A stretch of DNA of 60,345 bases. Source: Acidimicrobiia bacterium. GTDB lineage: Bacteria > Actinomycetota > Acidimicrobiia > Spongiisociales > ZC4RG35. Under the pieces are notes generated by a model. The model was not told where the DNA came from. It saw only the letters and a list, made by a program, of their open reading frames with translations, and searched no databases. The number at the start of each line of letters is the position of its first letter. Positions within the stretch are counted from its first letter, which is position 1. The stretch spans positions 1 through 60,345 of the forward strand of contig JBAULI010000134.1 in assembly GCA_049578105.1 (NCBI GenBank). The letters run 5' to 3'. This document shows, piece after piece, positions 6,260-46,175 of this stretch. Position numbers and translations under genes: made by a program.

Positions 6260-6836
6260 GTGGGTGTCGCGCATCGAAGAAGTGTTTTTGGAACATGACC
6301 ACACTCGCCCCGATTCCAATTATCGGGAGGAGTGTGAGGTCATCGATTCCCCAAGCTGTGCCCAGATCGAGAGGGCCCCAGAGGAGCGATGAGATGGACA
6401 ACACGCCCAAGGCCGCCAGCGCCCCCTTTCCCGAGGACCGAGTCAGGTAGGTGACGACGACCAGGAGCACGAGAAGAAGTGGCAGGACCGTCGGCCACGC
6501 TCCTGCCAGCACACCGGCGGTGATACTGAGGCCCTTCCCTCCTTCGAATCGATACCAAACGTTGTAGACGTTGCCCACGATCGCCCCGACACCGCCCACC
6601 ACCACCGCGATATCGCCGCCTATCAGGTGACCGACGGCCACCACGAGCAATCCCTTTCCCATTTCGACCACCAGGACCGCCAAACCGAGTGTCGGCCCAC
6701 CGAGCCGGTTTGCATTGTTGGCCCCGGGGTTCCTCGAGCCGGACCCCCGAAGGTCGACGCCGCGAAGCCGCCCCAGCCAAACGGCAGTGGGGAGAGAGCC
6801 GATGGCGTAGCCGACGACCAGGGCCGCGAGGATCAC
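6237..6836 (-). CDS. plsY: acyl-phosphate:glycerol-3-phosphate acyltransferase PlsY
   Basis: Multi-TM protein with the PlsY signature GSGSRNPGANNANRLGG. The GTG at 6836 overlaps the adnB stop (GTGA) and gives the typical start VILAALVVGYAIGSLP. An alternative ATG lies at 6899. The 3' end overlaps the dtd 3' end by 23 nt (convergent). Confidence 0.8.
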   Translation of the reverse strand: MILAALVVGYAIGSLPTAVWLGRLRGVDLRGSGSRNPGANNANRLGGPTLGLAVLVVEMGKGLLVVAVGHLIGGDIAVVVGGVGAIVGNVYNVWYRFEGGKGLSITAGVLAGAWPTVLPLLLVLLVVVTYLTRSSGKGALAALGVLSISSLLWGPLDLGTAWGIDDLTLLPIIGIGASVVMFQKHFFDARHPLRESAPG

Positions 6837-9800
6837 TCTCCGGACACCTCCTGGAGACCCGGCCCGCAGAACCTCAAGAAGTCGCAATGCCGGCACCATG
6901 GCCCTGGCGTCGCATCGAATCGTCCGGCCTCGATGGCATCGGTCAGGTCCTCTAGGTGCGTCTTGGCTTGGCGCCGCCACTCGGCGTCTGCCGGTCGGCT
7001 GCTCACCTCCAGGCCACCACCGAGATACACGAACGAAACGGTGACCTCCTCTGGCATGGGGGGGCCGAAGTCGACCTGGACGGCGGCGACGGCGTACGCC
7101 TCGAGTTGAACGACCCGGGCCGGGTCATCGCTGGGACGGCCGCTCTTGAAGTCGACTATCTCCCAGGAGCCGCCGTCTATGTAAACGGCGTCGATTCGGC
7201 CGCGCACCTCGTAGTCATTCGACAGCACGAGGTTGAATGGTGATTCGACGAGGGTGGCGCTTCGCTTGCCGTATCGGGAGCTCTCGAAGGCTTCGAATCC
7301 GCCTCCGACGATCCCCCCATCGCCAATGGCGTCATACATGTCGGGCCTCATCTCCTCGAAAGGGACCTGGCCCCGTTGATACAGCTCGATCTTCCGATGC
7401 AGCTCGGTACCGGCCGTTGCTGCGGGGTTTCGGCGTCTCGGAAGGGGGTCGACCTCGCTCCAGAAGAATCGCTTGGGGCATTGCGCGTAGGTGACCAAGC
7501 CCGTCACCGACACCTGTCGTCTCTCCGGGCCTACTGCCGACGCCGTCTCCACGGTCGCCAGGTCGAAGAGGGTTTGGATCGTGGCCTCGGCGCGTCGGCG
7601 CATCTCGTTCTCGTGGCCCAGATCGCGAGCCAGGGTCGCCGGGTAGCCCTCATCGTCGATGGCTCGTCTCAAGGCCCCATCCCAACCTTCAACGAAGAGG
7701 GGATCGGGCGTGACCCCTTCGTCGGTCGTGATGAGCAATTCAGGGCGGGGAGTCTCTTCGGCGTGGCCTTCCACGATCGTGCGCTCATCCTCCTCGATCA
7801 TGTTGAACAGGGCGGACGGCTTCTTGGCCGTCGTCGAGGGCTCTGGCAACCCGTACCAATAGGCGCCGGTCACGATCAGCGTCGAGCGTGCCCTGGTTGC
7901 GGCGACATATGCGACCCGCCACTCCTGGAGGTCGTTGCGAGCCTTGAAGTATTCCTTTCGACCTGCTTCATCGAGCGGCATGTCGTCGAGGACCTCGTCG
8001 ATTCGGAACTCCGGCGGTAGGTACTCGGCGAATCGGAGGGGATCCGGGTATTGCTGCGACTGCCCCGGGAAGCTCTTCTCCGTGACGGCCGGGATGACCA
8101 CGACCTCCCATTCCAGGCCCTTGGCGCGATGGACAGTGACCAGGGTCACGGCGTCTTCACCGGATAGGTGGGCGGAGTCCAACTCCTCGGCGGGCTCGTC
8201 TTCCATCGCATCGAGGTAGTCCAGGAATGCGCCCAGCGACGGCCTCCCCACCAGCGGGCTCCAGTCCTCGGTGAGGTCGAGCAGACGGTAGAGATTGAGG
8301 CGGGCGGTGGTCCGCTGGCTCGGGGGCAGGGCCTCGATGTCCTGCCAGGCACGGATGCGATCGAGGGTGAGGCGGGCTGTCTCCACGAGACTCATTCCCT
8401 GGATCTCGCCGAGCAACCCTCGATAGGTGTCGAGGAAGTGAGCGAGGGCCGGCCTCGCTTCCGGGCGCAGGTCTGTGACGTCGTCCAGGTGCTCGATCGC
8501 CTCCAACAGAGAGACCGCCGGGATGTCATCGGCGTCGAGATCGAGGTCGCGATCGTCGCGGCTGCGGTCGATGAGCCAATTGGTCAGGGGAGCCAGGTCG
8601 GCCAGACCGAGTCGATAGCGGCTCCCGAACAATATCTGGGTCAATGCCCCACTGTCCTGGGGTCTCTCGAGGATCGACAGCCACGATCTCAGCTCACCCA
8701 CCTCCGGGACGGAGAGGAGGCCCCCGAGGTTGGCGACCTCGACGGGGATGTCATGTCGTGACATCGAATCGACGACGACCGCGAAGTCCTTGTTCTTTCG
8801 GAACAGCACTGCCATCTCGCTCCATGGCGTCCCGTCCTGATGCAGGGACTCGAGTCGTCGGGCGATCCAATCGGCCTCTGCGATCGCATCTGTGGCCCAG
8901 TGGGTGATCACGACACCGGGCGCCTCTGGGTCTTGAGAGATCAGATCGGGTGCCTCGGGGTTGGCTCTCTTCCGGATCTGGTTGGCGATGTGGAGGATCG
9001 GGTCGGCAGATCGTCGATTGAGGGTGAGCGAGAGGGTGTCGGCGGGAACACCACCGATGTTGCGGAAGTGATCCGGGAATTGCTCGAAGTTCTCCGCCGA
9101 AGCCCCTCTCCACTCATAGATCGTCTGGTCCTCGTCGCCAACGGCTATGACCGGGACCCCTGTGGCGAAGATGGTCGTCAGCAAAGCCCTCTGTGCCGGG
9201 TTGGTGTCCTGGTACTCATCGAGGACAACGGTCTGATAGCGACGCTGGATCTCCTTTGCCAGATCCGGGTTGTCTTCCATAAGCCGATGCGAGAGGGTCA
9301 CCAGATCCGAGTAGTCGACGACACCCAGCCGACGCTTGTCGAGCTCGTATCGGCTCAGAGTCTCCAGCATCTCCAGCCGCTTCGCCCATATGTCGTCATC
9401 GGGTCGCGCCGATCCCAGCAGGTCGACCGGCATCAACAGATGATCGCCGAGACGATCACCGAGAAGCCGGATCTTGTCGACTCCACCCGAATAGGTGATG
9501 TCCAAGTGCTCATAGGAGGTGTGTTGAAAGGATTCCGTGAGGATCTGGCGGGAGAAGGTCGGCGTGATCACACGCAGGGGGCCCCTGAGACCGGCGAGGG
9601 CGCCAAACTCCCCGAGGATCTGGGCGGCGAACCCGTGATAGGTGTGAACTTCGGCCTGCCGACCCTCGTCGATCTCTTCGCCAAGGAAGAGCTTGACCCT
9701 CTCTGCCAACTCCGCTGCGGCCTTGTTGGTGAAGGTGATACCCAGAACGCGCTCGGGGTCGATGCCGTGATTGGCGACCAGGTTGGCGATCACCATGGCG

Positions 9801-9904
9801 ACGGTGGTCGTCTTTCCGGTGCCCGCTCCCGCCCTGATCCGCATGCTCTGCGGGCCACGGGCCAATATCCGCTCCTGCTCCCCGGATGGCCGAATCTCGA
9901 TCAT
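6833..9904 (-). CDS. adnB: ATP-dependent helicase-nuclease subunit AdnB (UvrD-like motor plus RecB-type nuclease)
   Basis: 1023 aa. Walker A GAGTGKTT, DEYQDTNP (motif II), TVHRAKGLEWE and YVAATRAR helicase motifs. C-terminal PD-(D/E)XK block GRIDAVY...WEIVDFKSG, plus Cys at YAQCPKRF and CRHCDFLRFC. Second gene of the pair, with the start overlapping the adnA stop (ATGA). Confidence 0.75.
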   Translation of the reverse strand: MIEIRPSGEQERILARGPQSMRIRAGAGTGKTTTVAMVIANLVANHGIDPERVLGITFTNKAAAELAERVKLFLGEEIDEGRQAEVHTYHGFAAQILGEFGALAGLRGPLRVITPTFSRQILTESFQHTSYEHLDITYSGGVDKIRLLGDRLGDHLLMPVDLLGSARPDDDIWAKRLEMLETLSRYELDKRRLGVVDYSDLVTLSHRLMEDNPDLAKEIQRRYQTVVLDEYQDTNPAQRALLTTIFATGVPVIAVGDEDQTIYEWRGASAENFEQFPDHFRNIGGVPADTLSLTLNRRSADPILHIANQIRKRANPEAPDLISQDPEAPGVVITHWATDAIAEADWIARRLESLHQDGTPWSEMAVLFRKNKDFAVVVDSMSRHDIPVEVANLGGLLSVPEVGELRSWLSILERPQDSGALTQILFGSRYRLGLADLAPLTNWLIDRSRDDRDLDLDADDIPAVSLLEAIEHLDDVTDLRPEARPALAHFLDTYRGLLGEIQGMSLVETARLTLDRIRAWQDIEALPPSQRTTARLNLYRLLDLTEDWSPLVGRPSLGAFLDYLDAMEDEPAEELDSAHLSGEDAVTLVTVHRAKGLEWEVVVIPAVTEKSFPGQSQQYPDPLRFAEYLPPEFRIDEVLDDMPLDEAGRKEYFKARNDLQEWRVAYVAATRARSTLIVTGAYWYGLPEPSTTAKKPSALFNMIEEDERTIVEGHAEETPRPELLITTDEGVTPDPLFVEGWDGALRRAIDDEGYPATLARDLGHENEMRRRAEATIQTLFDLATVETASAVGPERRQVSVTGLVTYAQCPKRFFWSEVDPLPRRRNPAATAGTELHRKIELYQRGQVPFEEMRPDMYDAIGDGGIVGGGFEAFESSRYGKRSATLVESPFNLVLSNDYEVRGRIDAVYIDGGSWEIVDFKSGRPSDDPARVVQLEAYAVAAVQVDFGPPMPEEVTVSFVYLGGGLEVSSRPADAEWRRQAKTHLEDLTDAIEAGRFDATPGPWCRHCDFLRFCGPGLQEVSGE

Positions 9905-12858
9905 GGGACGAACGCCCCCTTGCCTTCCGGCCAGGCCGGACAGGAGAGTCGGAAGTCACACCGCATGCACCGATCGCTGACCCTCGGCTCCCAGGTCTCG
10001 GATGTGATTGCCCTGGTCACCTCTTCCATCACCTGCCGGAGATCGTCGGAGTGGCTCATGTCGAGTTTTCGGACCGAGACGGTCTTGGCATTGGTCCTCG
10101 GGAACCACATCTCGGCTTCGACCACGGGCTCCCCCATCTCGTCGGTCACTGCGGCCGCATAGAACCCGAGCTGAATCGACTGCCCGGCGTCGGCGATCGT
10201 CGGTGCGTTCTTGGAGGTCTTGTAGTCGATGACACGCAGCCCCTTGGGGGCCCGCTCCAACCGATCGATGTACCCGAGCCAGGGAACTCCGTCGACCGTC
10301 ATCTCAACACGACGCTCCACCTCTAGGGGGATCCCATCGGGTGTCGGCCAGTTCTCGTAGAGCTTGGTCATCGCCTCACGGGCGTGTCTCAGCCATGCCT
10401 CGTTGAGCTGGGGCGTGCCGAAGTCTGCATCCCCCCAAACCGCCTCGAGCTGGCGCAGGGCGTCCTCGAGAGGAGCGTGTGACGCTCCGGTTCCGAGATT
10501 CTCCCGCTCCGCTCGCTCCAGCGCGGCGTGTACCAGTGTCCCGAATTGGGCGTACGGCGATGTCGAATTGCCCAGACGCATGCGCCGCTCGAGGGCATAT
10601 CGGCGCGGACAGCTCGTGTACGCGTCCGCCTGACTCGGCGAGAGACGGATCGACTCGGGGAGGATGGGTCGGTCCGGCCCCGGCGCTGGGACCCCGGCGA
10701 ACCGACCTGACTCCCACCAGACCCGGGGCGCTGAGGTGAGGACCTCGAGTGCGACGAGCCGATCCAGAGCCGCCGCCGCCGGGTCGAGCATCGTCCGGCG
10801 AAGCTGGACTTCGGCCTCTCCGATGGTCACAGCCGGCCGTTCTTCCTCGACCGGTGGTCCGGGCCGGGCGGCTCCCGGGCCTGCGGCGGCGAGGAGGAAT
10901 CGGGACGGTCGATGTTCGCCCTGGTCGACTCCCGCCTCGGTGGCGGTCCACACCACCCGGTTCTTGGCTCGAGTCATGGCCGTGTAGGCGAGACGCATCT
11001 CCTCCTGCACCTGAAAGAGGCTCTGGGCGCTGGGGTCGGTGGTTCGCTCCGGAGACAGCAATTCTGGGCGAAGCATTCGCCGGCCTCGTGTCAGGTCGGG
11101 GAAGACTCCTTCAACGGCGTTGGCGATGTAAACGACGTCGAACTCGAGGCCCTTTGCCTGATGGAGTGTGGTCAGCGTGACCCGGTCCCCATGCGGTTGG
11201 AACGACAGCAACGGCTCGGATTCGAAACCGTCTTCCTCGGTCAGGCGAAAGTAGCCCAGCAACGTCACGGACGAGTCTCGCTCGGCTTGACGATCCAGCA
11301 CCTGGGAGAAGGAGGTGAGAGCCAGACGCCAGTCGCTCCTTGCCGGGTCGTTCACGATCGAATCGATACCCTCGAGACTGTTCCACACATGCCAGAAGCC
11401 GTCGATGGCGGGGCGGTCGAGGGCCCACGCCGGGTCCTCCAGGAGCGCGGCGAGATTCGGGTGGGAAGGCAGGGCGCGTGCGACGACTTCGGGCCAGGGG
11501 TCCCATGTCCGACGCCGATCCCGAAGGATCTGACGCTCCTGGCCCAGACCGGCAGACACCAGCGGGCCGAGCATGATTCGCCGCATGGCCTGATCCGCCT
11601 CCGCTGCCTCTCCCGGGCTGACCACCGGGATGCTTCCGCCTGAGGTCGCGGCGATCACCAGGTCGTGGACGAGTCGGATGGCAGGATGCTCGACCAATCG
11701 TGAGTCCGGTGCGTCGTGGGGGATGTGCCGACGTGTGAGCGCCCGGCTCAGCTGATTGAGCATCTGGCGTTTGGACCTGACGAGGACGGCGACGTCCGAA
11801 GGCTTCTTGTTCTCGACGCGGATCGCATGCTCGATGTCCTTGGCGATCCACTCGGCCTCCGCCGTCTCCTGGTCGAATATGTGGCATTGGACGAAGCCGA
11901 CGTGGTCGGCAGCCTCCACCGGCCCGGCGGCACCGGGGAGATCGCCTCCGGAGACGACCCTGAGGGCAGAGCTCAGGATCTCGGCCGGAACCCTCTGACT
12001 CTTGGTGAGGACGATGCGGTGGGCGCTCGGGTGGGTCTCGGTGAACTCCGCCACGTTGCGGACTTCGGCGCCCCGAAATGAATAGATGGACTGGTAGGGG
12101 TCCCCTGCCACCGTCAGGTTCCCACCGGGGAGGGCGAGGAGTCGTGCCAGCTCCGCCTGGGCCGGGGACGTGTCTTGATACTCGTCCACCACCACGTATT
12201 CGAACCCCGAGGCCAGCTCCTTCCCTTGCGTGGTGGTCAACAGCGAGACTGCGGACACGAGCATCGTTCCGTAGTCGGTGCGATCGATGGAGGCCAGGAG
12301 GTCGCGATACTTCCGGAACAGACCCGGGATGCCTCGCCAGTCGGCACGTGAGCGAGCGCGTTCGCTCAGGTCATCCGGGGATAGGAGACGCTCGGAGCAC
12401 CTCATGAGGAAGTCGGCGATCTCGGCGGCGAAGGCGGGCGTATCCAGGATGCCCCTGTAGATCAACGGCCACTGCTCGGGATCTTCGGCTCGTAGCAGCT
12501 CGCCCACCAATGAGACTTGCTCTGGCGTCGTCAGTGGGACTGGCCTTGTGCCACCGCTCCCGGTCTCGAGCAGGCGAAGAGCGAGTGAGTGAAAAGTCGA
12601 TGCCTGAATCGGGATGCCGGAGCGGCCGAGAAGGTCTTGCACACGTCCCTTGATGTCGGCCGCCGCCCGTCGTGAGAAGGTGAGAACCGAGACCTGGTCC
12701 CTTCGAGCCCGGCCGCTCTGGATCAGATGGGCAACACGCCGGACCAGGAATTCCGTCTTCCCCGTCCCCGGGCCGGCGACCACCAACTGGTAACCGCTGC
12801 CCTCGGGTATGACCAAATCCCAGTCCTCGGGCGCGACCCGGGTCTCCCTCAACGACAC
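9901..12858 (-). CDS. adnA: ATP-dependent helicase-nuclease subunit AdnA (UvrD-like motor plus RecB-type nuclease)
   Basis: 985 aa. Walker A GPGTGKTE, DEYQDTSP, TLHQAKGLEFD and YTAMTRAK motifs. C-terminal nuclease block GYIDRLER...VIDYKTSK, plus Cys at YTSCPRRY and CMRCDFRLSC. GTG start. Confidence 0.75.
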   Translation of the reverse strand: MSLRETRVAPEDWDLVIPEGSGYQLVVAGPGTGKTEFLVRRVAHLIQSGRARRDQVSVLTFSRRAAADIKGRVQDLLGRSGIPIQASTFHSLALRLLETGSGGTRPVPLTTPEQVSLVGELLRAEDPEQWPLIYRGILDTPAFAAEIADFLMRCSERLLSPDDLSERARSRADWRGIPGLFRKYRDLLASIDRTDYGTMLVSAVSLLTTTQGKELASGFEYVVVDEYQDTSPAQAELARLLALPGGNLTVAGDPYQSIYSFRGAEVRNVAEFTETHPSAHRIVLTKSQRVPAEILSSALRVVSGGDLPGAAGPVEAADHVGFVQCHIFDQETAEAEWIAKDIEHAIRVENKKPSDVAVLVRSKRQMLNQLSRALTRRHIPHDAPDSRLVEHPAIRLVHDLVIAATSGGSIPVVSPGEAAEADQAMRRIMLGPLVSAGLGQERQILRDRRRTWDPWPEVVARALPSHPNLAALLEDPAWALDRPAIDGFWHVWNSLEGIDSIVNDPARSDWRLALTSFSQVLDRQAERDSSVTLLGYFRLTEEDGFESEPLLSFQPHGDRVTLTTLHQAKGLEFDVVYIANAVEGVFPDLTRGRRMLRPELLSPERTTDPSAQSLFQVQEEMRLAYTAMTRAKNRVVWTATEAGVDQGEHRPSRFLLAAAGPGAARPGPPVEEERPAVTIGEAEVQLRRTMLDPAAAALDRLVALEVLTSAPRVWWESGRFAGVPAPGPDRPILPESIRLSPSQADAYTSCPRRYALERRMRLGNSTSPYAQFGTLVHAALERAERENLGTGASHAPLEDALRQLEAVWGDADFGTPQLNEAWLRHAREAMTKLYENWPTPDGIPLEVERRVEMTVDGVPWLGYIDRLERAPKGLRVIDYKTSKNAPTIADAGQSIQLGFYAAAVTDEMGEPVVEAEMWFPRTNAKTVSVRKLDMSHSDDLRQVMEEVTRAITSETWEPRVSDRCMRCDFRLSCPAWPEGKGAFVP

Positions 12859-14410: not shown

Positions 14411-14486
14411 CGCTGAAAGCTCTAATCATCTACGCCAAAGGCTCTAATCATCTCCGCTGAAAGCTCTAATCATCTCCGCCAAAGGC
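14411..14486. repeat. tandem direct repeat (22 bp units alternating in two variants, about 3.5 copies)
   Basis: Units: cgctgaaagctctaatcatcta / cgccaaaggctctaatcatctc / cgctgaaagctctaatcatctc / cgccaaaggc. The last copy is the true 3' end (FGGDD-stop) of the minus-strand nuclease gene. The other copies fill the spacer to the gdh stop. Confidence 0.9.
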
Positions 14487-15347
14487 GGGGCAAATCTCCT
14501 GGAACGAGCACCAATTGCACAGTGTCCCGGGGCGGGGTGGGAAGTTCTCACTCCTCATGGCACGCTCGATCGCATTCCAAAGTGCCCTGAGCTGGCTCTC
14601 CATGGCGTCCAATTGCCTCTCGTCGACTTCGAGGCGATACATGGTTGGCCCGTTCAGATAGAGCAGTCTCAGCTCCTTGGGTGTCTCGTTCAGCCGACGC
14701 CGAATGAGCAGCGCATAGATCTTCAAGGCGAAGAAAGCCGGTAAGGCAAAGCGCTCCGGCGGTGCCTTCCCGGTCTTGTAGTCGGTGATGATCAGCCGCC
14801 CGTCGATGTCACGGTCGATCCGGTCGAGAATCCCTCGGATGGTGATGCCATCGAGATCCTCGAGCATGTCGAGCTCGCGATCGACCGGCTCGAAGGAGGT
14901 TGGGTCCTCGATCCCGAAGTAGTTCGCCAACAGCTCGAGCGACTCGACACCCCATTGCCGCTCATCGTCGGTGTCCGGGAAGAGCGCTTCGAATTCCTCG
15001 TCACCACGCATCTCGGTCCAGGCGGCACGGAAGAGATCGAACAGGAGCTCCGGAGTCCGGTCGGCCGCAGGGTGATCGAAGAGCCTCTGTAGGGCGAGAT
15101 GAGCCGTGGTCCCCCTCGCCTGATAGACCGAAGTGGGCTCCGGCAGCCGCTCGATCGCTCGAAACTTGAACAACTGCGGACATGTCTTGAAGTCTCCGGC
15201 ACGGCTTGGCGAGAGGGTCTCGAGACGGGGCGGTTCCAAATCAACGGTCACGATGGCGAGTGTAAGGACGCCGTGTGACAGGATTCGGGGTTTCGTCGTC
15301 GAGCCAGGTCTGCCGGACACCGGAACGGCCCGGGCGCGCGAAAACAT
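14466..15347 (-). CDS. PD-(D/E)XK nuclease, RecB/Cas4-like exonuclease family
   Basis: LSPSRAGDFKTCPQLFKFRAIERLPEP at the N-terminus, nuclease core GILDRIDRD...LIITDYKTGK, and C-terminal CNWCSFQEIC. The start is uncertain: ATG at 15347 (maximal ORF) or GTG at 15251 (VTVDLEPPRLETLSPSRA). Confidence 0.7.
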   Translation of the reverse strand: MFSRARAVPVSGRPGSTTKPRILSHGVLTLAIVTVDLEPPRLETLSPSRAGDFKTCPQLFKFRAIERLPEPTSVYQARGTTAHLALQRLFDHPAADRTPELLFDLFRAAWTEMRGDEEFEALFPDTDDERQWGVESLELLANYFGIEDPTSFEPVDRELDMLEDLDGITIRGILDRIDRDIDGRLIITDYKTGKAPPERFALPAFFALKIYALLIRRRLNETPKELRLLYLNGPTMYRLEVDERQLDAMESQLRALWNAIERAMRSENFPPRPGTLCNWCSFQEICPAFGGDD

Positions 15348-15367
15348 CCCTTAGGACGCGAAAAACA
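15337..15367. promoter_or_regulatory. bipartite direct-repeat motif copy 1 (CGCGAAAAC-N11-CGCGAAAAACA)
   Basis: cgcgaaaac at 15337-15345 and cgcgaaaaaca at 15357-15367. Overlaps the most upstream candidate ATG of the nuclease gene. The same bipartite motif recurs at 15621-15652. Confidence 0.3.
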
Positions 15368-15512
15368 GTTCGTGATCCCGCTTGACGCTCGTTTCGGGCT
15401 CTCGTACCTTCCGATCACCAAATCCGGGGCAACCTGGAGTTGGGGAAGGAGAGGCTTCGGTCGCTCTGGATTGCCGCCCGACTGGGGGCCCGCTTTCCTG
15501 GTCGGTGGCACT

Positions 15513-15564
15513 GAGAGCCCCGAGAGGGCTGAGGCTTCGGCCAAAGCTCCCTCGGGGTTTCTCG
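15513..15564 (+). repeat. hairpin module copy A (~52 nt)
   Basis: gagagccccgagagggctgaggcttcggccaaagctccctcggggtttctcg. The outer 13-position stem 15518-30/15545-57 has one A-C mismatch. The inner stem GGC/GCC is capped by UUCG. Confidence 0.7.
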
Positions 15565-15620
15565 CGTTCGGACTCTTGTTGTCGCGCTCGAGACTCGAGA
15601 TTCGCCCGTCGGCGCCGGCT

Positions 15621-15652
15621 CGCGAAAACTGAGAATCCGATCGCGAAAAACA
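15621..15652. promoter_or_regulatory. bipartite direct-repeat motif copy 2 (CGCGAAAAC-N12-CGCGAAAAACA)
   Basis: cgcgaaaac at 15621-15629 and cgcgaaaaaca at 15642-15652. Same half-sites and near-identical spacing as copy 1, about 285 nt away. Confidence 0.3.
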
Positions 15653-16010
15653 ATCACGCTCTGAAGTTGCAAGGGTTGGGGCGAAGGTCTACTTTCCTCG
15701 TCACGCCAAAGGGGAGACCCGGCGGCGCCCCGAACAAACGGGTACGGGACGGTGAGAGCCGACCCGGGAAGAAACCCCGCAGTACGGGTTCCTGGCCAAA
15801 GGGAAACCAGAGGCTCAGGAGACCGGAGAACGACCGGGGATCCTTCGGGATCGTCGAGCAGTTACCGGTCAGCGGACTGAGGTCGCATTCGCCTGGAAAC
15901 GGGATGGAGGCACATCGCAGTTCGCAGGGGTGATCTTCGGATCGCTCCACCGGAGACTTCGGTCCCCGGAATCCGCTCGGAGTTGGGTCCCCGGCCCGAC
16001 ACCGACGGAC

Positions 16011-16063
16011 GAGAGTCCCGAGAGGGTTGAGACTTCGGTCGAGGCTCCCTCGGGGCTTTCTCG
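16011..16063 (+). repeat. hairpin module copy B (~53 nt)
   Basis: gagagtcccgagagggttgagacttcggtcgaggctccctcggggctttctcg. Same fold as copy A, with an inner GAC/GUC stem capped by UUCG. Confidence 0.7.
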
Positions 16064-16146
16064 TTTCTGGCCCGATCGTCTCGCCTACCTTTCACGTCGA
16101 CCATTGAATTCCGACGTGCGCGAGTCGCGGGGGATATGGTCCAGGT

Positions 16147-16545
16147 ATGTCGGCTGGCAACAAGACGATCGCCCGGGCGTGGTTCGACCAGGTGATGAAT
16201 GGGCGGGATATCTCCGCCATCGACCAGCTCTATTCCCATGACTACACCTATCGGGGGCCGGAGGGCCGCGTCGCGAGAGGTCTGGAGCAGGCCAAGGAAA
16301 TGGCTCAGATGCTCATCGAAGCGATGCCAGATCGGATGTCGATCGTCGAGGACCAGATAGCCGAAGGCGACAAGGTGGTCACGCGATGGGTCAGTCGTGG
16401 CACGCCGAGCGGGCCGTTGTTGGGCAGACCTGCCGACGGCAGGCGAATCGCCGTCCACGGCATCACCATCAGCCGGATCTCGGATGGGAAGATCGTCGAA
16501 GACTGGGAGATCTTGCGGATGGTGGAGGAGACCGATTCCGTCTGA
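16147..16545 (+). CDS. SnoaL-like / ester cyclase family protein
   Basis: 132 aa. NKTIARAWFDQVMNGRDISAIDQLYSHDY ... GRRIAVHGITISRISDGKIVEDWE matches the NTF2-fold SnoaL-like ester cyclase pattern. Confidence 0.7.
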   Translation: MSAGNKTIARAWFDQVMNGRDISAIDQLYSHDYTYRGPEGRVARGLEQAKEMAQMLIEAMPDRMSIVEDQIAEGDKVVTRWVSRGTPSGPLLGRPADGRRIAVHGITISRISDGKIVEDWEILRMVEETDSV

Positions 16546-24219: not shown

Positions 24220-24285
24220 AACAGTTGAAACTTGCGTCTCGACTGTATTCTCGGCACTTCTGTCTTACCGATCGAGGATTGATAC

Positions 24286-25032
24286 GTGGCTTTGCGCGCA
24301 TACGCTGACGGCGCACTGTTCGCAGAGAACCTGGGCGACGAGCCCTCGCAGGTCCTGGCGCTGCACGGTTGGGGTCGCCGGGGCAGTGATTTTCGCCAAT
24401 CTCTGAAAGGGATCCCGGCGCTTGCGGTCGATCTTCCCGGCTTTGGCGCCTCACCGCCACCCCCGACGGTCATCGGCGCCGAGGGATATGCGACCGCCAT
24501 GACTCCGTTGCTCGGCCATCTCGCCGATCCGGCGGTCCTTTTGGGCCATTCTTTCGGCGGGAGGGTCGCCGTCGAGTTGGCCGCCGCCCACCCCGGTCGA
24601 TTCTCGAGGTTGATCCTGACCGGTGTGCCGTTGGTGCGGATTCGCCCTCCCGCCCGTCCCTCGGCCGGATTTCGGGCACTGAGGGCGCTTCACAAAACGG
24701 GTGTCATCTCGGATGACAGGATGGAGGAGATCAGGCGGAAGAGGGGCTCGGCGGACTATCGGGCGGCCACCGGGGTGATGCGCGACATCCTGGTGAAGGT
24801 GATCAACGAGAGCTACGAGCCCAGTCTCGAGACGATCAAGTCCCCGATCGAGTTGATTTGGGGCGCCGAAGACGCCGAGGTTCCGATCGGGGTTGCCGAA
24901 CGCGCGCTGGAGATCGTGCGCAACTCTGGCGGGACGGCGACGCTGCAGGTCATCGATGGGGTCGGCCACTTGCTGCCCCTGCAGTCACCCGAGTCACTTC
25001 GAGTCCCCGTGGAGCGGGCCTTGCGCGCATGA
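24286..25032 (+). CDS. alpha/beta hydrolase
   Basis: 248 aa. Nucleophile elbow GHSFGG, an HGWG oxyanion region near the N-terminus, and a C-terminal GHLLPLQSP histidine block. GTG start. Confidence 0.8.
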   Translation: MALRAYADGALFAENLGDEPSQVLALHGWGRRGSDFRQSLKGIPALAVDLPGFGASPPPPTVIGAEGYATAMTPLLGHLADPAVLLGHSFGGRVAVELAAAHPGRFSRLILTGVPLVRIRPPARPSAGFRALRALHKTGVISDDRMEEIRRKRGSADYRAATGVMRDILVKVINESYEPSLETIKSPIELIWGAEDAEVPIGVAERALEIVRNSGGTATLQVIDGVGHLLPLQSPESLRVPVERALRA

Positions 25033-35933: not shown

Positions 35934-36770
35934 TTGCCCGAGTTGCCCGAAGTAGAGATAACCCGCCGGCACCTGGAAGAGGCGATGAAAGGTCGCCGGA
36001 TGCTGGATGTCAGGACCACCCATCCTCGGACGGCCCGGCACAACGCTGGGCCTCAACAGCTCGACGAGCGTCTGCGGGATCGGCGTGTCCTCTCGGTGGA
36101 TCGCATCGGGAAATTCCTCACCGCCCCTCTCGACGATGGTCAGACGATGATCGCCCACCTCGGGATGTCGGGTCGTTTCTGGGTGGGTCAGCCCGATCAG
36201 CCAGAGCCGATCCACACACACTTCCGCGCCCTGCTGGACGACGGGTCTCAAGTTCGATTCATCGACCCGAGGACCTTCGGGTTCGTGGCCGTCGTCGCCG
36301 AAGACGAGATTGCCGGCTCGGGTGTTGCCAGACTCGGCCCCGATGCGTGGCTGTCCGCACCGACACCGGCGGACTTGCACCAGGCTCTTGCCCGGCGAGC
36401 AGCCCCGATCAAGGCTCTGTTGTTGGACCAGGTGATCCTCTCGGGTCTGGGGAACATCTACGCAGACGAGGCCCTGCATCGAGCCGGAATCCATCCTCTC
36501 CGCTCGGGCAGCAGTCTCGATGAGGAGGAGTTGACCCGTCTGCTCCAGACGGTGAGGGAGGTACTGGCCGAGGCGATCGATCACGGCGGGACCAGCCTCG
36601 ACGACCTCGCCTTCCTGCTGCCCGACGGGCGCGCCGGTGAGAATCTCGATCGGCTCGCCGTGTATGGGAGGACCGACCTGCCATGCCCCAACTGCGGCAC
36701 ACCGATCGAGCGTGTGGTGATCCGAGCCCGCTCCAGCCATTTCTGCCCGAATTGTCAGAGGCTTCCGTGA
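35934..36770 (+). CDS. mutM: formamidopyrimidine-DNA glycosylase
   Basis: The TTG at 35934 gives the obligatory (M)PELPEVE N-terminus with catalytic Pro2. H2TH region LLDQVILSGLGNIYADEALH and C-terminal zinc finger CPNCGTPIERVVIRARSSHFCPNCQ. Confidence 0.9.
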   Translation: MPELPEVEITRRHLEEAMKGRRMLDVRTTHPRTARHNAGPQQLDERLRDRRVLSVDRIGKFLTAPLDDGQTMIAHLGMSGRFWVGQPDQPEPIHTHFRALLDDGSQVRFIDPRTFGFVAVVAEDEIAGSGVARLGPDAWLSAPTPADLHQALARRAAPIKALLLDQVILSGLGNIYADEALHRAGIHPLRSGSSLDEEELTRLLQTVREVLAEAIDHGGTSLDDLAFLLPDGRAGENLDRLAVYGRTDLPCPNCGTPIERVVIRARSSHFCPNCQRLP

Positions 36771-43874: not shown

Positions 43875-45992
43875 TCAGATGTTGAGGACGATCACCGAGC
43901 ATCCGGCCGTGGACAGCAGTCTCTCCACCTTCGGTCCGAGATAGAGACGTTGAGATCCTGCCCTCACTGCGGTGCCGAGGATCATCAGGTCGATGTCCCC
44001 TTCGTCGAGTCGAGCCAGGATCGATTCGGTTGTCTCCCCGCGGAGTCTCACCTCGGAGAGCACACGCGCTCCAACTCCCTCACCGACGGATCGCAGGTCT
44101 TCTACGACCTCCTGACCGATGCCGAGTCGGACGGCGGCCGAGGAGGGGACACCGGTGGCCATCTGTGTCGTGAGGCTCTGGTCCACCACGTGGAAGATGA
44201 CCACCTCGCCGTCCTGACCGGCGAGGGTGAAGGCGAGGTCGGCGGCCCTGCGCGCCCACTGCGAGCCTCCGGTGGGGACGAGGATCCTCCTCGGCGGCCA
44301 TTGCCCGGTCCCGGCGCTGAAGACCAGAGTGGGACACGACGCCAGCCTCACTACCTCATCGACGATCGAGGAGTAGAAGTGCTCGTCGTGCTCCCCGCGC
44401 TCGGTCGCACCCATTGCGACCAGGTCATAGCCAGTGTCGATCTCACGCAGGATTGCGCGGCCGACGTCCCCGGGCGGGACGAGCTTGGTAGCGATCTCGG
44501 TTCCGGTCGGAAATAGGCCGGCCAGACGATCGAGGTATTGGTCGGCGTCCCTTCGCTCGCCTCTTGCGACCGCGCTCAGCAAGGTGACAGCGAGCCCCTG
44601 GTCCGCGATTCGCGCCAAGGCCGAGGCTTCGAGGGCCTGGGCGCCGGGCTCGCCCTCGGTGCGGAGGCGAACCGGCACCAAGACGCGACGGATGTCCCCC
44701 AATGTGCCTACCTTCCGATCCGATGCTTCAGGGCCTGGCTGGGGAACACCGAATACGAGCCGGATGCCGATCGGCGCCGCCACCGAAGTCAATATCGACA
44801 CCACGACCATCATCGAGTAGATCTCGACCGAGAAGATCTGCATGGAGAGCCCGATCGACGCAACGATGATCCCGAGAACACCGCGAGCGTTCAAGGCGAG
44901 CCCATAGGCGATCCCTTCACGCCGGGTTGTCGAAGCCCACCGCGCCCCGAGGTATGCGCCGAACAACTTTCCGGCGGCGGCCACCAGCAAGACGGCACCG
45001 GTCAACGCGAGAAGCCGGGGCTCGAGCAACTTGGCGATGTCGAGTCTCAGCCCGGCAGTTGCCAGGAATATCGGGGCGAACACGCCATAGGTGACACTCT
45101 CGAGCTGACGCCCCACTTCGAGTGGCATGCGGCGGGTCTGCCCGAAGATCACCCCGATTGCAAACGCTCCCAATATCGGCTCGAGATGGAGCGCTTGGGT
45201 CAGAGCGCCCCAAGCGAAGGCGAGACAGATCACCAGGGTGAGGACGCGATCCCTCGAGATCATGCGGTCTTGCACCAGATGCAAAGCCTTCCGGGCCACG
45301 GGGCGGGCGACGAGGAGCGTCGCCAACACGAAGATCATGACGGCCCCGAGTGTCTGGGAGACTGCAAGCAGATCGAAACTGCCTGCAGCCGCCAGCGACG
45401 TCACGACTCCGAGAAGGGCCCAACCCAGAAGGTCGTCGATCATTCCGGCGGCAAGGACGGTTTGGCCGAACGGACGTCGCATCAGCCCGAGGTCGCCGAG
45501 GATCTTGGCCAGCACCGGAATTGCCGAGAGTGACAGGGCAACCGCGAGAAAGAGGGCGAACACGCCTCGTTGCGAGGGGTCGGGGAGAAGGTCGTCAGGG
45601 ATGTACATCCCCAGCCCGAAACCGAAGAGGAGGGGGAGCACGAGCCCGCCGAGCCCGACACTCATCGAGATCTTGAGCCGGGACCGGATCAACCCGAGGT
45701 CGGTCTCCATGCCTATCACCACGAGGAGGAGCATCACTCCCAGGACACCGACCAGATCGAGGAGTTGCACCTGGCCCGGCGTGGAGGGGATGAGCAGCCG
45801 GCCAAAGGCGGGGAACAGGCCCGAGATGCCGGAAGGGCCGAGGACGACCCCGGCCATGATCTCGCCGACCACGGGTGGGATGCCCAGTCGCAGACAGAGC
45901 TCGCCCATGAGGCGAGCGGTGGCCAGGAGCATGGCGAACGCCACGACCAGCTTCAGGAGATCAGCATGGGGTATGCCGGCTATCGGCTCCAT
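43875..45992 (-). CDS. cation:proton antiporter (CPA2/Kef-type membrane domain) fused to two universal stress protein domains
   Basis: 705 aa. About 12 TM helices (GEIMAGVVLGPSG..., FLATAGLRLD). Two C-terminal USP-like modules follow (RRVLVPVRL...YDLVAMGATERG and RRILVPTGG...IDLMILGTAVRAGSQRLYLGPKVERLL). Confidence 0.8.
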   Translation of the reverse strand: MEPIAGIPHADLLKLVVAFAMLLATARLMGELCLRLGIPPVVGEIMAGVVLGPSGISGLFPAFGRLLIPSTPGQVQLLDLVGVLGVMLLLVVIGMETDLGLIRSRLKISMSVGLGGLVLPLLFGFGLGMYIPDDLLPDPSQRGVFALFLAVALSLSAIPVLAKILGDLGLMRRPFGQTVLAAGMIDDLLGWALLGVVTSLAAAGSFDLLAVSQTLGAVMIFVLATLLVARPVARKALHLVQDRMISRDRVLTLVICLAFAWGALTQALHLEPILGAFAIGVIFGQTRRMPLEVGRQLESVTYGVFAPIFLATAGLRLDIAKLLEPRLLALTGAVLLVAAAGKLFGAYLGARWASTTRREGIAYGLALNARGVLGIIVASIGLSMQIFSVEIYSMMVVVSILTSVAAPIGIRLVFGVPQPGPEASDRKVGTLGDIRRVLVPVRLRTEGEPGAQALEASALARIADQGLAVTLLSAVARGERRDADQYLDRLAGLFPTGTEIATKLVPPGDVGRAILREIDTGYDLVAMGATERGEHDEHFYSSIVDEVVRLASCPTLVFSAGTGQWPPRRILVPTGGSQWARRAADLAFTLAGQDGEVVIFHVVDQSLTTQMATGVPSSAAVRLGIGQEVVEDLRSVGEGVGARVLSEVRLRGETTESILARLDEGDIDLMILGTAVRAGSQRLYLGPKVERLLSTAGCSVIVLNI

Positions 45993-46055
45993 GGAGCATT
46001 CCTTCCTCTATGGCCTACGGGGTTAGCTGACGGGCTCGAACTGGAAGGTGCTCTA

Positions 46056-46115
46056 CCCGGCTGATCCGGGATTCGCCCCAATTTTCGGGTCCCCCGTCCC
46101 GACTTGGCAGCCGGG
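46056..46115 (-). promoter_or_regulatory. nested hairpin element in the leader of the antiporter gene (alternatively a terminator of the upstream glycosyltransferase gene)
   Basis: An 8 bp perfect outer helix (cccggctg at 46056-63 with cagccggg at 46108-15) encloses a 5 bp helix (46067-71 with 46097-101). It lies 64 nt upstream of the ATG at 45992 and 61 nt downstream of the stop at 46176. Confidence 0.3.
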
Positions 46116-46175
46116 TTCGGCGTTTGGTGGAGGATATCGCAGATTGGTGCCGGTGGAGAGCAGTCTCGGGGTGAT

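Follow-up and report, generated by a model that had tools for sequence, protein, structure and literature searches.

Introduction

Sibling small RNAs (sRNAs) transcribed from promoters with activator boxes include GlmY/GlmZ, Qrr1-5, RsmY/RsmZ, PrrF1/PrrF2 and OmrA/OmrB, and in GlmY and GlmZ the shared structure binds one protein. 6C RNA (Rfam RF01066), a conserved actinobacterial sRNA, carries C-rich apical loops on stable hairpins. The Acidimicrobiia are abundant in soil and water and have barely been studied; to our knowledge, the class lacks Hfq and ProQ. Here we analyse a coding-free stretch (positions 15348–16146) in 60 345 bp of DNA from an Acidimicrobiia bacterium, hereafter the window. 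The coding-free stretch lies between a divergent nuclease gene on the minus strand and a SnoaL-like gene on the plus strand. The stretch contains two units, designated u1 and u2, which are probably two independent genes for structured, trans-acting sibling sRNAs of a new family. As judged by sequence searches, the family is found throughout the Acidimicrobiia and matches nothing in Rfam or in the literature searched; it is apparently a hitherto undescribed family, although its kind, sibling sRNAs under a dedicated promoter, is familiar.

A synteny-based survey located the abundant actinobacterial RNA Ms1 in 14 orders of Actinobacteria, none belonging to the Acidimicrobiia (PMC9130861); the Ms1 gene has an oxidoreductase or glycoside hydrolase gene on one side and a gene for a HAD-IB hydrolase ('inhibition of morphological differentiation') or CpaE on the other (PMC9130861, Tables 1-3). 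The RNA raiA is also present in Acidimicrobiia (PMC10861870). The literature searched held no described Acidimicrobiia sRNA and no matching motif.

Homologues of the two units

Homologous loci were collected from species-representative genomes, all of them metagenome-assembled genomes (MAGs), with the protein encoded by the adjacent nuclease gene as query. The resulting 80 loci amounted to ~700 kb; most were labelled Acidimicrobiia and some inconsistently (for example, Acidobacteriota). Units homologous to u1 (15336–15575) and u2 (15620–16075) were detected by blastn and nhmmer in 75 and 67 of the 80 loci, respectively, and alignments were built of 56 u1 (A1) and 48 u2 (A2) sequences. In many loci, nhmmer matched the 3' ~120 nt of u1 to the 3' end of u2, indicating that the two genes are paralogues. 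Many of the nearest MAGs (MFD series; L001–L080) bore the label 'Acidobacteriota' and some 'Boseongicola' or 'Kiloniellaceae', with nuclease, glutamate dehydrogenase (GDH) and RNA loci that were 70–92% identical to those of Acidimicrobiia MAGs; these records are probably mislabelled or mis-binned.

Promoters and upstream boxes

Alignment of the homologues showed that each unit begins with a predicted sigma-A-type promoter, preceded at a fixed distance by two CGCGAAA direct repeats:

15337–15343 and 15357–15363, plus strand: u1 upstream boxes, CGCGAAA direct repeat, 20 nt from start to start, invariant in the 56 homologues
15382–15410, plus strand: u1 core promoter, -35 TTGACG at 15382–87, 17-nt spacer, -10 TACCTT at 15405–10
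15621–15627 and 15642–15648, plus strand: u2 upstream boxes, CGCGAAA, 21 nt from start to start
15667–15695, plus strand: u2 core promoter, -35 TTGCAA at 15667–72, 17-nt spacer, -10 TACTTT at 15690–95

Box 2 of u2 was invariant in all 48 sequences. Within the core promoters, TTGA and TA..T(T) were invariant in A1, and TTG and TA..TT in A2, with transcription starts predicted from the sequence at ~15414–15417 for u1 and ~15700–15703 for u2. The geometry was rigid over 255 promoter instances: the boxes lay 20 or 21 nt apart (start to start), the distance from box 2 to the -35 element was 18 nt in 248, and the -35/-10 spacer measured 17 or 18 nt in 251. The double CGCGAAA box occurred twice in the window, against an expectation of 0, both times at u1 or u2; in the ~700 kb of nuclease-anchored loci the double-box promoter was found almost only at u1 and u2, with six further, unclassified occurrences in divergent or short loci. 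A consensus promoter scan of the region found none: it requires TATAAT, as in E. coli, and the conserved TAC.TT conforms instead to the actinobacterial pattern TANNNT.

The rigid promoter, with repeats two helical turns apart at ~-57 and ~-77, suggests a dedicated DNA-binding activator or repressor. One transcription factor may bind the CGCGAAA repeats and so co-regulate u1 and u2, and the promoters yield a candidate site for it (CGCGAAA, ~13–14 nt, CGCGAAA). A reading of the repeats as a GlnR box was dropped, as the half-site spacing, judged by eye, does not fit.

Structure of the predicted RNAs

Comparison of the aligned sequences showed bodies built of covariation-supported hairpins with UUCG or GNRA tetraloop caps, each predicted RNA ending in a near-invariant 20-bp 3' hairpin:

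~15417–15570, plus strand: u1 RNA, ~150 nt, with P1 at 15419–15443, P2 (cUUCGg) at 15448–15467 and the two-part P3 at 15473–15509
15484–15498, plus strand: invariant apical element of u1, GGGGGCCCGCUUUCC, with loop CCCGCU closed by G·U and G-C pairs
15513–15563, plus strand: u1 3' hairpin with UUUCUC tail, 20 bp, UUCG-capped, predicted terminator and conserved module
~15702–16070, plus strand: u2 RNA, ~365 nt, with ~12 serial hairpins
15704–27, 15795–15814 (GAAA), 15889–15907 (GAAA), 15930–45 (UUCG) and 15950–69 (UUCG), plus strand: u2 hairpins
15830–61, plus strand: u2 hairpin with invariant CGGGGAUCCUUCGGGAUCGUCG
15972–16009, plus strand: u2 hairpin with invariant GGGUCCCCGGCC apex
16010–16063, plus strand: u2 3' hairpin with UUUCUCG tail, paralogue of the u1 hairpin, 20 bp, UUCG-capped

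An earlier prediction made from this DNA alone (the original prediction) had read the stretch as a structured RNA and staked that reading on covariation in aligned relatives, which was found for both units. In the u1 consensus 94.1% of cells were paired and 29 of 49 pairs had changes on both sides; the RNAalifold consensus of u2 had 91.4% of cells paired, with 54 of 107 pairs compensatory. Covariation scores were 0.262 for u1 (0.159 in shuffles, at most 0.097 with partners slid) and 0.259 for u2 (0.163 and at most 0.087, respectively), and none of 500 shuffles reached the score in either case. Fold z-scores against shuffled sequence were -2.97 for u1 (15410–15570) and -4.67 for u2 (15695–16070). 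Cells with G·U far exceeded those with A·C in both units (405 vs 31 in u1, 565 vs 110 in u2), indicating that the plus strand is the RNA strand, as had been proposed.

Six CTTCGG hexamers start in the stretch on the plus strand (15455, 15535, 15843, 15935, 15957 and 16033, the last copy ending at 16038), in agreement with the six cUUCGg loops that had been pointed out. With 70 copies on both strands of the 60 345 bp, ~0.4–0.5 would be expected per 800 nt per strand (~0.4 for the stretch), and we calculate a Poisson probability of ~1e-5 for six. The predicted hairpins at 15838–52, 15932–43 and 15950–69 and the GAAA hairpin at 15892–15903 were all present and are preserved with compensatory changes in relatives. 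Two of the outer nested helices that had been proposed failed. The helix 15678–83/15726–31 enclosing 15686–90/15715–19 was paired in 64% of cells and showed no covariation, shuffles did as well (187 of 500), and its 5' arms fall in the u2 promoter; the helix 15821–26/15865–70 was paired in 38% as drawn and a shifted 3-bp version reached 66% only. A crude and noisy stacked-pair scan for long-range helices and pseudoknots gave nothing convincing, neither a rod nor a helix joining u1 and u2.

Several hairpins swap tetraloops between UUCG and GNRA across relatives, which is the behaviour of structural caps. Other parts are fixed, namely the GAAA loops at 15714–17 and 15803–06 and the stem sequences of the GGGGGCCCGCUUUCC element of u1 and of the CGGGGAUCCUUCGGGAUCGUCG hairpin and GGGUCCCCGGCC apex of u2. 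From their strict conservation, the two GAAA loops would be expected to make tertiary contacts. The GGGGGCCCGCUUUCC element was invariant or nearly so in 53 of the 56 u1 sequences, and it is the sole body element kept in minimal ~100-nt variants of u1 (L090, L112 and L135), which consist of the invariant-loop hairpin and the 3' hairpin alone. The near-invariant GGGAAGG between P1 and P2 (15443–15449) could pair with GCUUUCC of the P3 loop (15492–15498) as a pseudoknot or alternative fold; only invariant bases are involved, and GGGAAGG is lost in divergent members.

Open reading frames (ORFs) of 183 and 198 amino acids can be drawn across the stretch and two ~50-nt modules repeat within it, which might be taken to indicate a pseudogene in decay, an overlooked protein gene, or a mobile element or repeat of the miniature inverted-repeat transposable element (MITE) or repetitive extragenic palindromic (REP) type. 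Yet no ORF drawn within 15348–16146 had a Pfam match, in keeping with the earlier judgement that none was believable; the 183-amino-acid ORF extends over both units, which relatives can carry apart from each other, pairs change in a compensatory manner and length differences are not multiples of three, so that a decayed gene, named earlier as an alternative, was ruled out. The repeated module is confined to the two RNA genes, with no tandem repeats. Plasmid and phage blastn searches gave no match to the RNA genes, and scans of viral contigs returned 0 matches to the 3' module and a lone match to the u2 hairpin pattern, which had no other similarity and was put down to chance. Together these explanations retain almost no probability.

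Arrangement of the two units in relatives

While only ~50 nt separate u1 and u2 in the source genome, the distance is 0.5–2.5 kb in many relatives, where the interval holds unrelated genes on either strand for Pyr_redox_2, HTH_65 plus methyltransferase, a ceramidase-like protein or DUF222. Other genes are inserted between the nuclease gene and u1 in some relatives, and u1 is inverted in L006 and L025. Gene order is conserved as GDH-nuclease-u1. The genes that follow u1 and u2 differ between loci in identity and strand, and SnoaL was found 3' of u2 in just 2 of ~67 loci. As the units are split or inverted in relatives and SnoaL is rarely present, u1 and u2 are neither parts of one RNA nor leaders of the downstream gene. 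The inverted u1 copies (L006:3776–4010, L025:2761–2996) point to the nuclease gene and end at or just before its start, and read-through into that gene is possible in these two loci.

The original prediction had favoured one large RNA of ~0.8 kb across the stretch, of the OLE, GOLLD or ROOL kind. Its structured, non-coding, plus-strand character stood; the single RNA gave way to two independent genes, each with a conserved predicted promoter and terminator. Dense covarying hairpins and tetraloops would suit a single non-coding RNA, and at a spacing of ~50 nt in the source genome some read-through co-transcript is possible. A single RNA is nevertheless very improbable, given a conserved internal terminator and a second full promoter, units that in many relatives are either inverted or separated by 0.5–2.5 kb of DNA holding protein genes on either strand, no supported long-range helix joining u1 and u2, and no match in Rfam. 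A terminator hairpin upstream of a same-strand gene, as seen in the window, would also be expected of cis-regulatory leaders (riboswitch or attenuator) acting on the SnoaL gene or on u2. This explanation is hardly tenable with SnoaL after u2 in 2 of ~67 loci and downstream genes of varying identity and strand; moreover, no supported antiterminator pairing mutually exclusive with the terminator was found.

The shared 3' hairpin and the wider family

Column identity of the 3' hairpin was ~91% in u1 and ~90% in u2, compared with 72–78% for the bodies (78% for that of u1), and a G-C to A-U compensatory change was present in 8 sequences of the u1 hairpin. The two repeated modules of the original prediction correspond to this hairpin; they were recovered at 15513–60 and 16011–58, 85% identical to each other and nowhere else in the window. 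A scan of the ~700 kb of loci with the hairpin pattern placed all copies at u1 or u2. A K-turn in the hairpin was considered and dropped for want of conservation in the apical internal loop.

When metagenome contigs were scanned for exact matches to the 3' hairpin pattern, 95 loci were identified (L082–L176), with 44 hairpins in u1-like units, 47 in u2-like units and 26 in units that nhmmer did not recognise, some of these truncated by contig ends. The unrecognised units that were examined came from divergent lineages (nuclease identity 64–76%). They retained the double-box promoter and the 3' hairpin, with bodies unrelated to those of u1 or u2 that formed chains of up to ~11 short hairpins capped by UUCG, GCAA or GAAA; the bodies measured ~50–350 nt and the units 128 to ~420 nt from box 1 to the hairpin. 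Lengths of 207 promoter-to-terminator units clustered at ~125–175 nt and ~350–425 nt, and hairpins capped by UNCG were ~20-fold enriched in these units over a shuffle control. In the divergent lineage represented by L091 (minus strand), two units lie ~700 nt apart; the site is ~1100 nt upstream of the 3' module whose reverse-strand offset is 9743. The body of one of them is made of ~11 consecutive cUUCGg-type hairpins, and the DNA that separates the two is GC-rich and carries repeated GGCCGGCTCCGCCGGC motifs.

Genomic neighbourhood and the divergent nuclease gene

The genes on either side of the stretch are as follows:

14466–15347, minus strand: gene for a PD-(D/E)XK Cas4-like nuclease (Pfam PDDEXK_1, E = 7e-37)
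15348–16146: coding-free stretch, between the divergent nuclease gene and the SnoaL-like gene
16147–16545, plus strand: SnoaL-like gene, directly 3' of the stretch

The true start of the nuclease gene is probably at ~15285–15310, as the first ~20 codons of the ORF drawn are not conserved. The nuclease gene is a conserved neighbour of the RNA genes: among metagenome loci anchored on the RNA and having at least 3.5 kb upstream, it was present in 35 of 36, within 2.6 kb of the RNA genes, and divergent in 34 of the 35, the linkage holding down to 64% protein identity. On the other side of the nuclease gene lies GDH. No record was returned by an exact-protein look-up of the nuclease, and a comparison with defined defence systems gave no match above threshold.

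Such very tight linkage (35 of 36 present, 34 of 35 divergent), together with u1 boxes close to the nuclease start, raises the idea that u1 and u2 act with or regulate the nuclease, as cofactor, guide, antitoxin-like inhibitor or regulator of its mRNA. However, the GDH gene is equally syntenic, so inheritance of a conserved block suffices to account for the linkage; other genes can separate u1 from the nuclease gene and from u2, and, at the threshold used, the nuclease was assigned to none of the defined defence systems. A functional tie to the nuclease is accordingly a long shot; if it were true, a structured RNA would be connected with DNA repair.

The neighbours in the window include AdnAB-like helicase-nucleases, GDH, the PD-(D/E)XK nuclease, SnoaL, an M24 peptidase, bPH_2 and an AMP-binding enzyme. 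Two tandem minus-strand genes at 6833–12858 encode proteins of ~1000 amino acids each with UvrD-helicase plus PD-(D/E)XK domains; the pair looks like an AdnAB-type double-strand-break helicase-nuclease and, together with the Cas4-like nuclease, makes three nuclease-domain genes clustered upstream of the RNA genes. By a crude gene call the stretch, at ~800 nt, is the longest gene-free gap in the window, as had been stated, although not by far, since others reach 755 nt. Further gaps of 570–755 nt (1733–2486, 6260–6832, 24220–24857 and 36044–36682) had no ORF passing a crude filter on length and third-position GC content (GC3), and no Rfam match. The only Rfam match in the whole window was a c-di-AMP (ydaO-type) riboswitch at 45997–46132 on the minus strand (91 bits against a gathering score of 38), just upstream of a same-strand ORF of 705 amino acids (43875–45992). 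No transfer RNA or transfer-messenger RNA (tmRNA) genes and no tandem repeats were found.

Comparison with known RNA families

A covariance-model search with Rfam 15 at gathering threshold (including 6S, 6C, raiA, OLE, ROOL, GOLLD, HEARO, RNase P, tmRNA and signal recognition particle RNA) gave no match in the region, in line with the earlier statement that the RNA belonged to no class that could be named. With E up to 10 there were two matches at chance level only (pRNA, 16 bits; CRISPR-DR36, 13 bits), and 16 diverse homologous loci gave 0 matches. Ms1 was chosen for direct comparison as a known abundant actinobacterial RNA of similar size. Neither nhmmer profiles of u1 and u2 (--max) nor blastn-short matched the S. 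coelicolor Ms1/scr3559 sequence, the one Ms1 sequence used (PMC9130861 supplement). S. coelicolor Ms1 folds as a rod; u2 does not. Membership of the Ms1 and 6S families was rejected on sequence and profile and on fold, and for Ms1 also on synteny.

A counterpart role, as opposed to membership, would make u1 and u2 the Acidimicrobiia equivalents of RNAs that bind RNA polymerase (6S, Ms1 and CoRP), acting as abundant decoys of core enzyme or holoenzyme. Both have a stand-alone sigma-A-type promoter and a terminator, the size of u2 resembles that of Ms1 (~300 nt) and CoRP (~500 nt), and paralogue pairs are known (6S-1 and 6S-2). Acidimicrobiia lay outside the Ms1 survey, and 6S has been reported absent from most Actinobacteria, in which further kinds of RNA that bind the polymerase are expected (PMC9130861, PMC11077062). 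On the other hand, the consensus structures are serial local hairpins instead of the long irregular rod of 6S (~180–200 nt), with its large central bubble and paired 5' and 3' ends, there was no 6S match even at E up to 10 and no similarity to S. coelicolor Ms1, and the Ms1-flanking genes (HAD-IB hydrolase, CpaE, oxidoreductase) are not among the neighbours here. We therefore regard a polymerase-binding role as unlikely. Should it hold, polymerase-binding RNAs would gain a third architecture with u1 and u2, in a phylum largely without 6S.

Discussion

The two units resemble independently transcribed sRNA genes in general: each has its own conserved predicted promoter and intrinsic terminator and no fixed downstream gene, and the alignments point to a conserved secondary structure, with compensatory changes, on the strand predicted to be transcribed. 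Under the favoured interpretation of two sibling sRNA genes, the RNAs would be stable and act in trans. The sequence of the 3' hairpin is conserved far beyond the needs of termination, even where the body has been replaced, and recognition by a conserved protein is the simplest reading of this. The hairpin may thus serve as a terminator and also as a sequence-specific docking or stability module for such a protein, a role that would explain why it is retained while the bodies turn over. Lineage-specific invariant elements would carry the specific activity, as a pairing seed or a second protein contact. Candidates are the C/U-rich apical loop of u1 (CCCGCUUUCC) and, in u2, the GGGGAUCC…GGAUCGUC and GGUCCCCGGCC hairpins; the u1 loop is the best of these, as it is the sole body element in the minimal form. 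The tetraloop hairpins would mainly supply nuclease resistance and architecture. We offer this docking-plus-seed mechanism tentatively, as one possibility that falls short of being probable.

Several points weigh against the interpretation as trans-acting sibling sRNAs. For u1 and u2, start sites, 3' ends and abundance are all predictions, and a transcription factor, a protein partner and targets are postulated. Complementary 12-mers to the u1 loop were no more frequent in the window than expected by chance. The U-tail is short (UUUCUC), and its efficiency in termination is assumed by analogy with actinobacterial terminators. The 3' hairpin could also be invariant because it signals processing, or because the two paralogues undergo gene conversion.

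A broader and rather doubtful proposal is that of a class-wide 'cassette' RNA family of a novel functional type, in which only an activator-dependent promoter and the 3' hairpin are fixed and frame a freely varying body of ultra-stable tetraloop hairpins, to give an abundant RNA that docks or sequesters a protein, as an equivalent of 6S/Ms1 with another fold or as a partner of the nuclease. The locus offers two delimited RNA genes, conserved across the class, with predicted promoters, boundaries and covariation-supported structures that are directly testable, and the invariant 3' hairpin can be used directly as bait for a partner protein.

With the large structured bacterial RNAs raiA, OLE, ROOL, GOLLD and HEARO the two RNAs share many covarying helices and conserved GNRA and UUCG caps; they differ in matching none of these models, in being smaller, in being two genes and in having a body that is not conserved across the class. 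Like 6C RNA, u1 and u2 have their most conserved bases in C-rich apical loops, a plausible seed for G-rich targets. Their loops are, however, CCCGCU and CCC and not runs of at least six C, they have no Rfam match, and they are much larger, with additional domains. The likeness to Ms1, 6S and CoRP lies in a stand-alone gene of ~200–500 nt with a conserved sigma-A-like promoter and intrinsic terminator, in weak sequence conservation within a conserved gene neighbourhood and in occurrence in Actinomycetota (PMC4191392, PMC9130861, PMC11077062); u1 and u2 differ from them in lacking the rod-and-bubble fold, a sequence or profile match and their flanking genes.

In organization, the sibling sRNAs share with u1 and u2 paralogous genes, often in tandem, repeated upstream sites at a fixed distance and a common 3' module. 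The present pair differs from them in having no sequence or Rfam relation to them and in a body of tetraloop hairpins that is replaced between lineages. Its unusual trait, as read from the aligned loci, is that the control region and the 3' hairpin stay constant while the body changes, and the family thereby illustrates how a structured RNA can exchange its body and yet retain the elements for control and at the 3' end.

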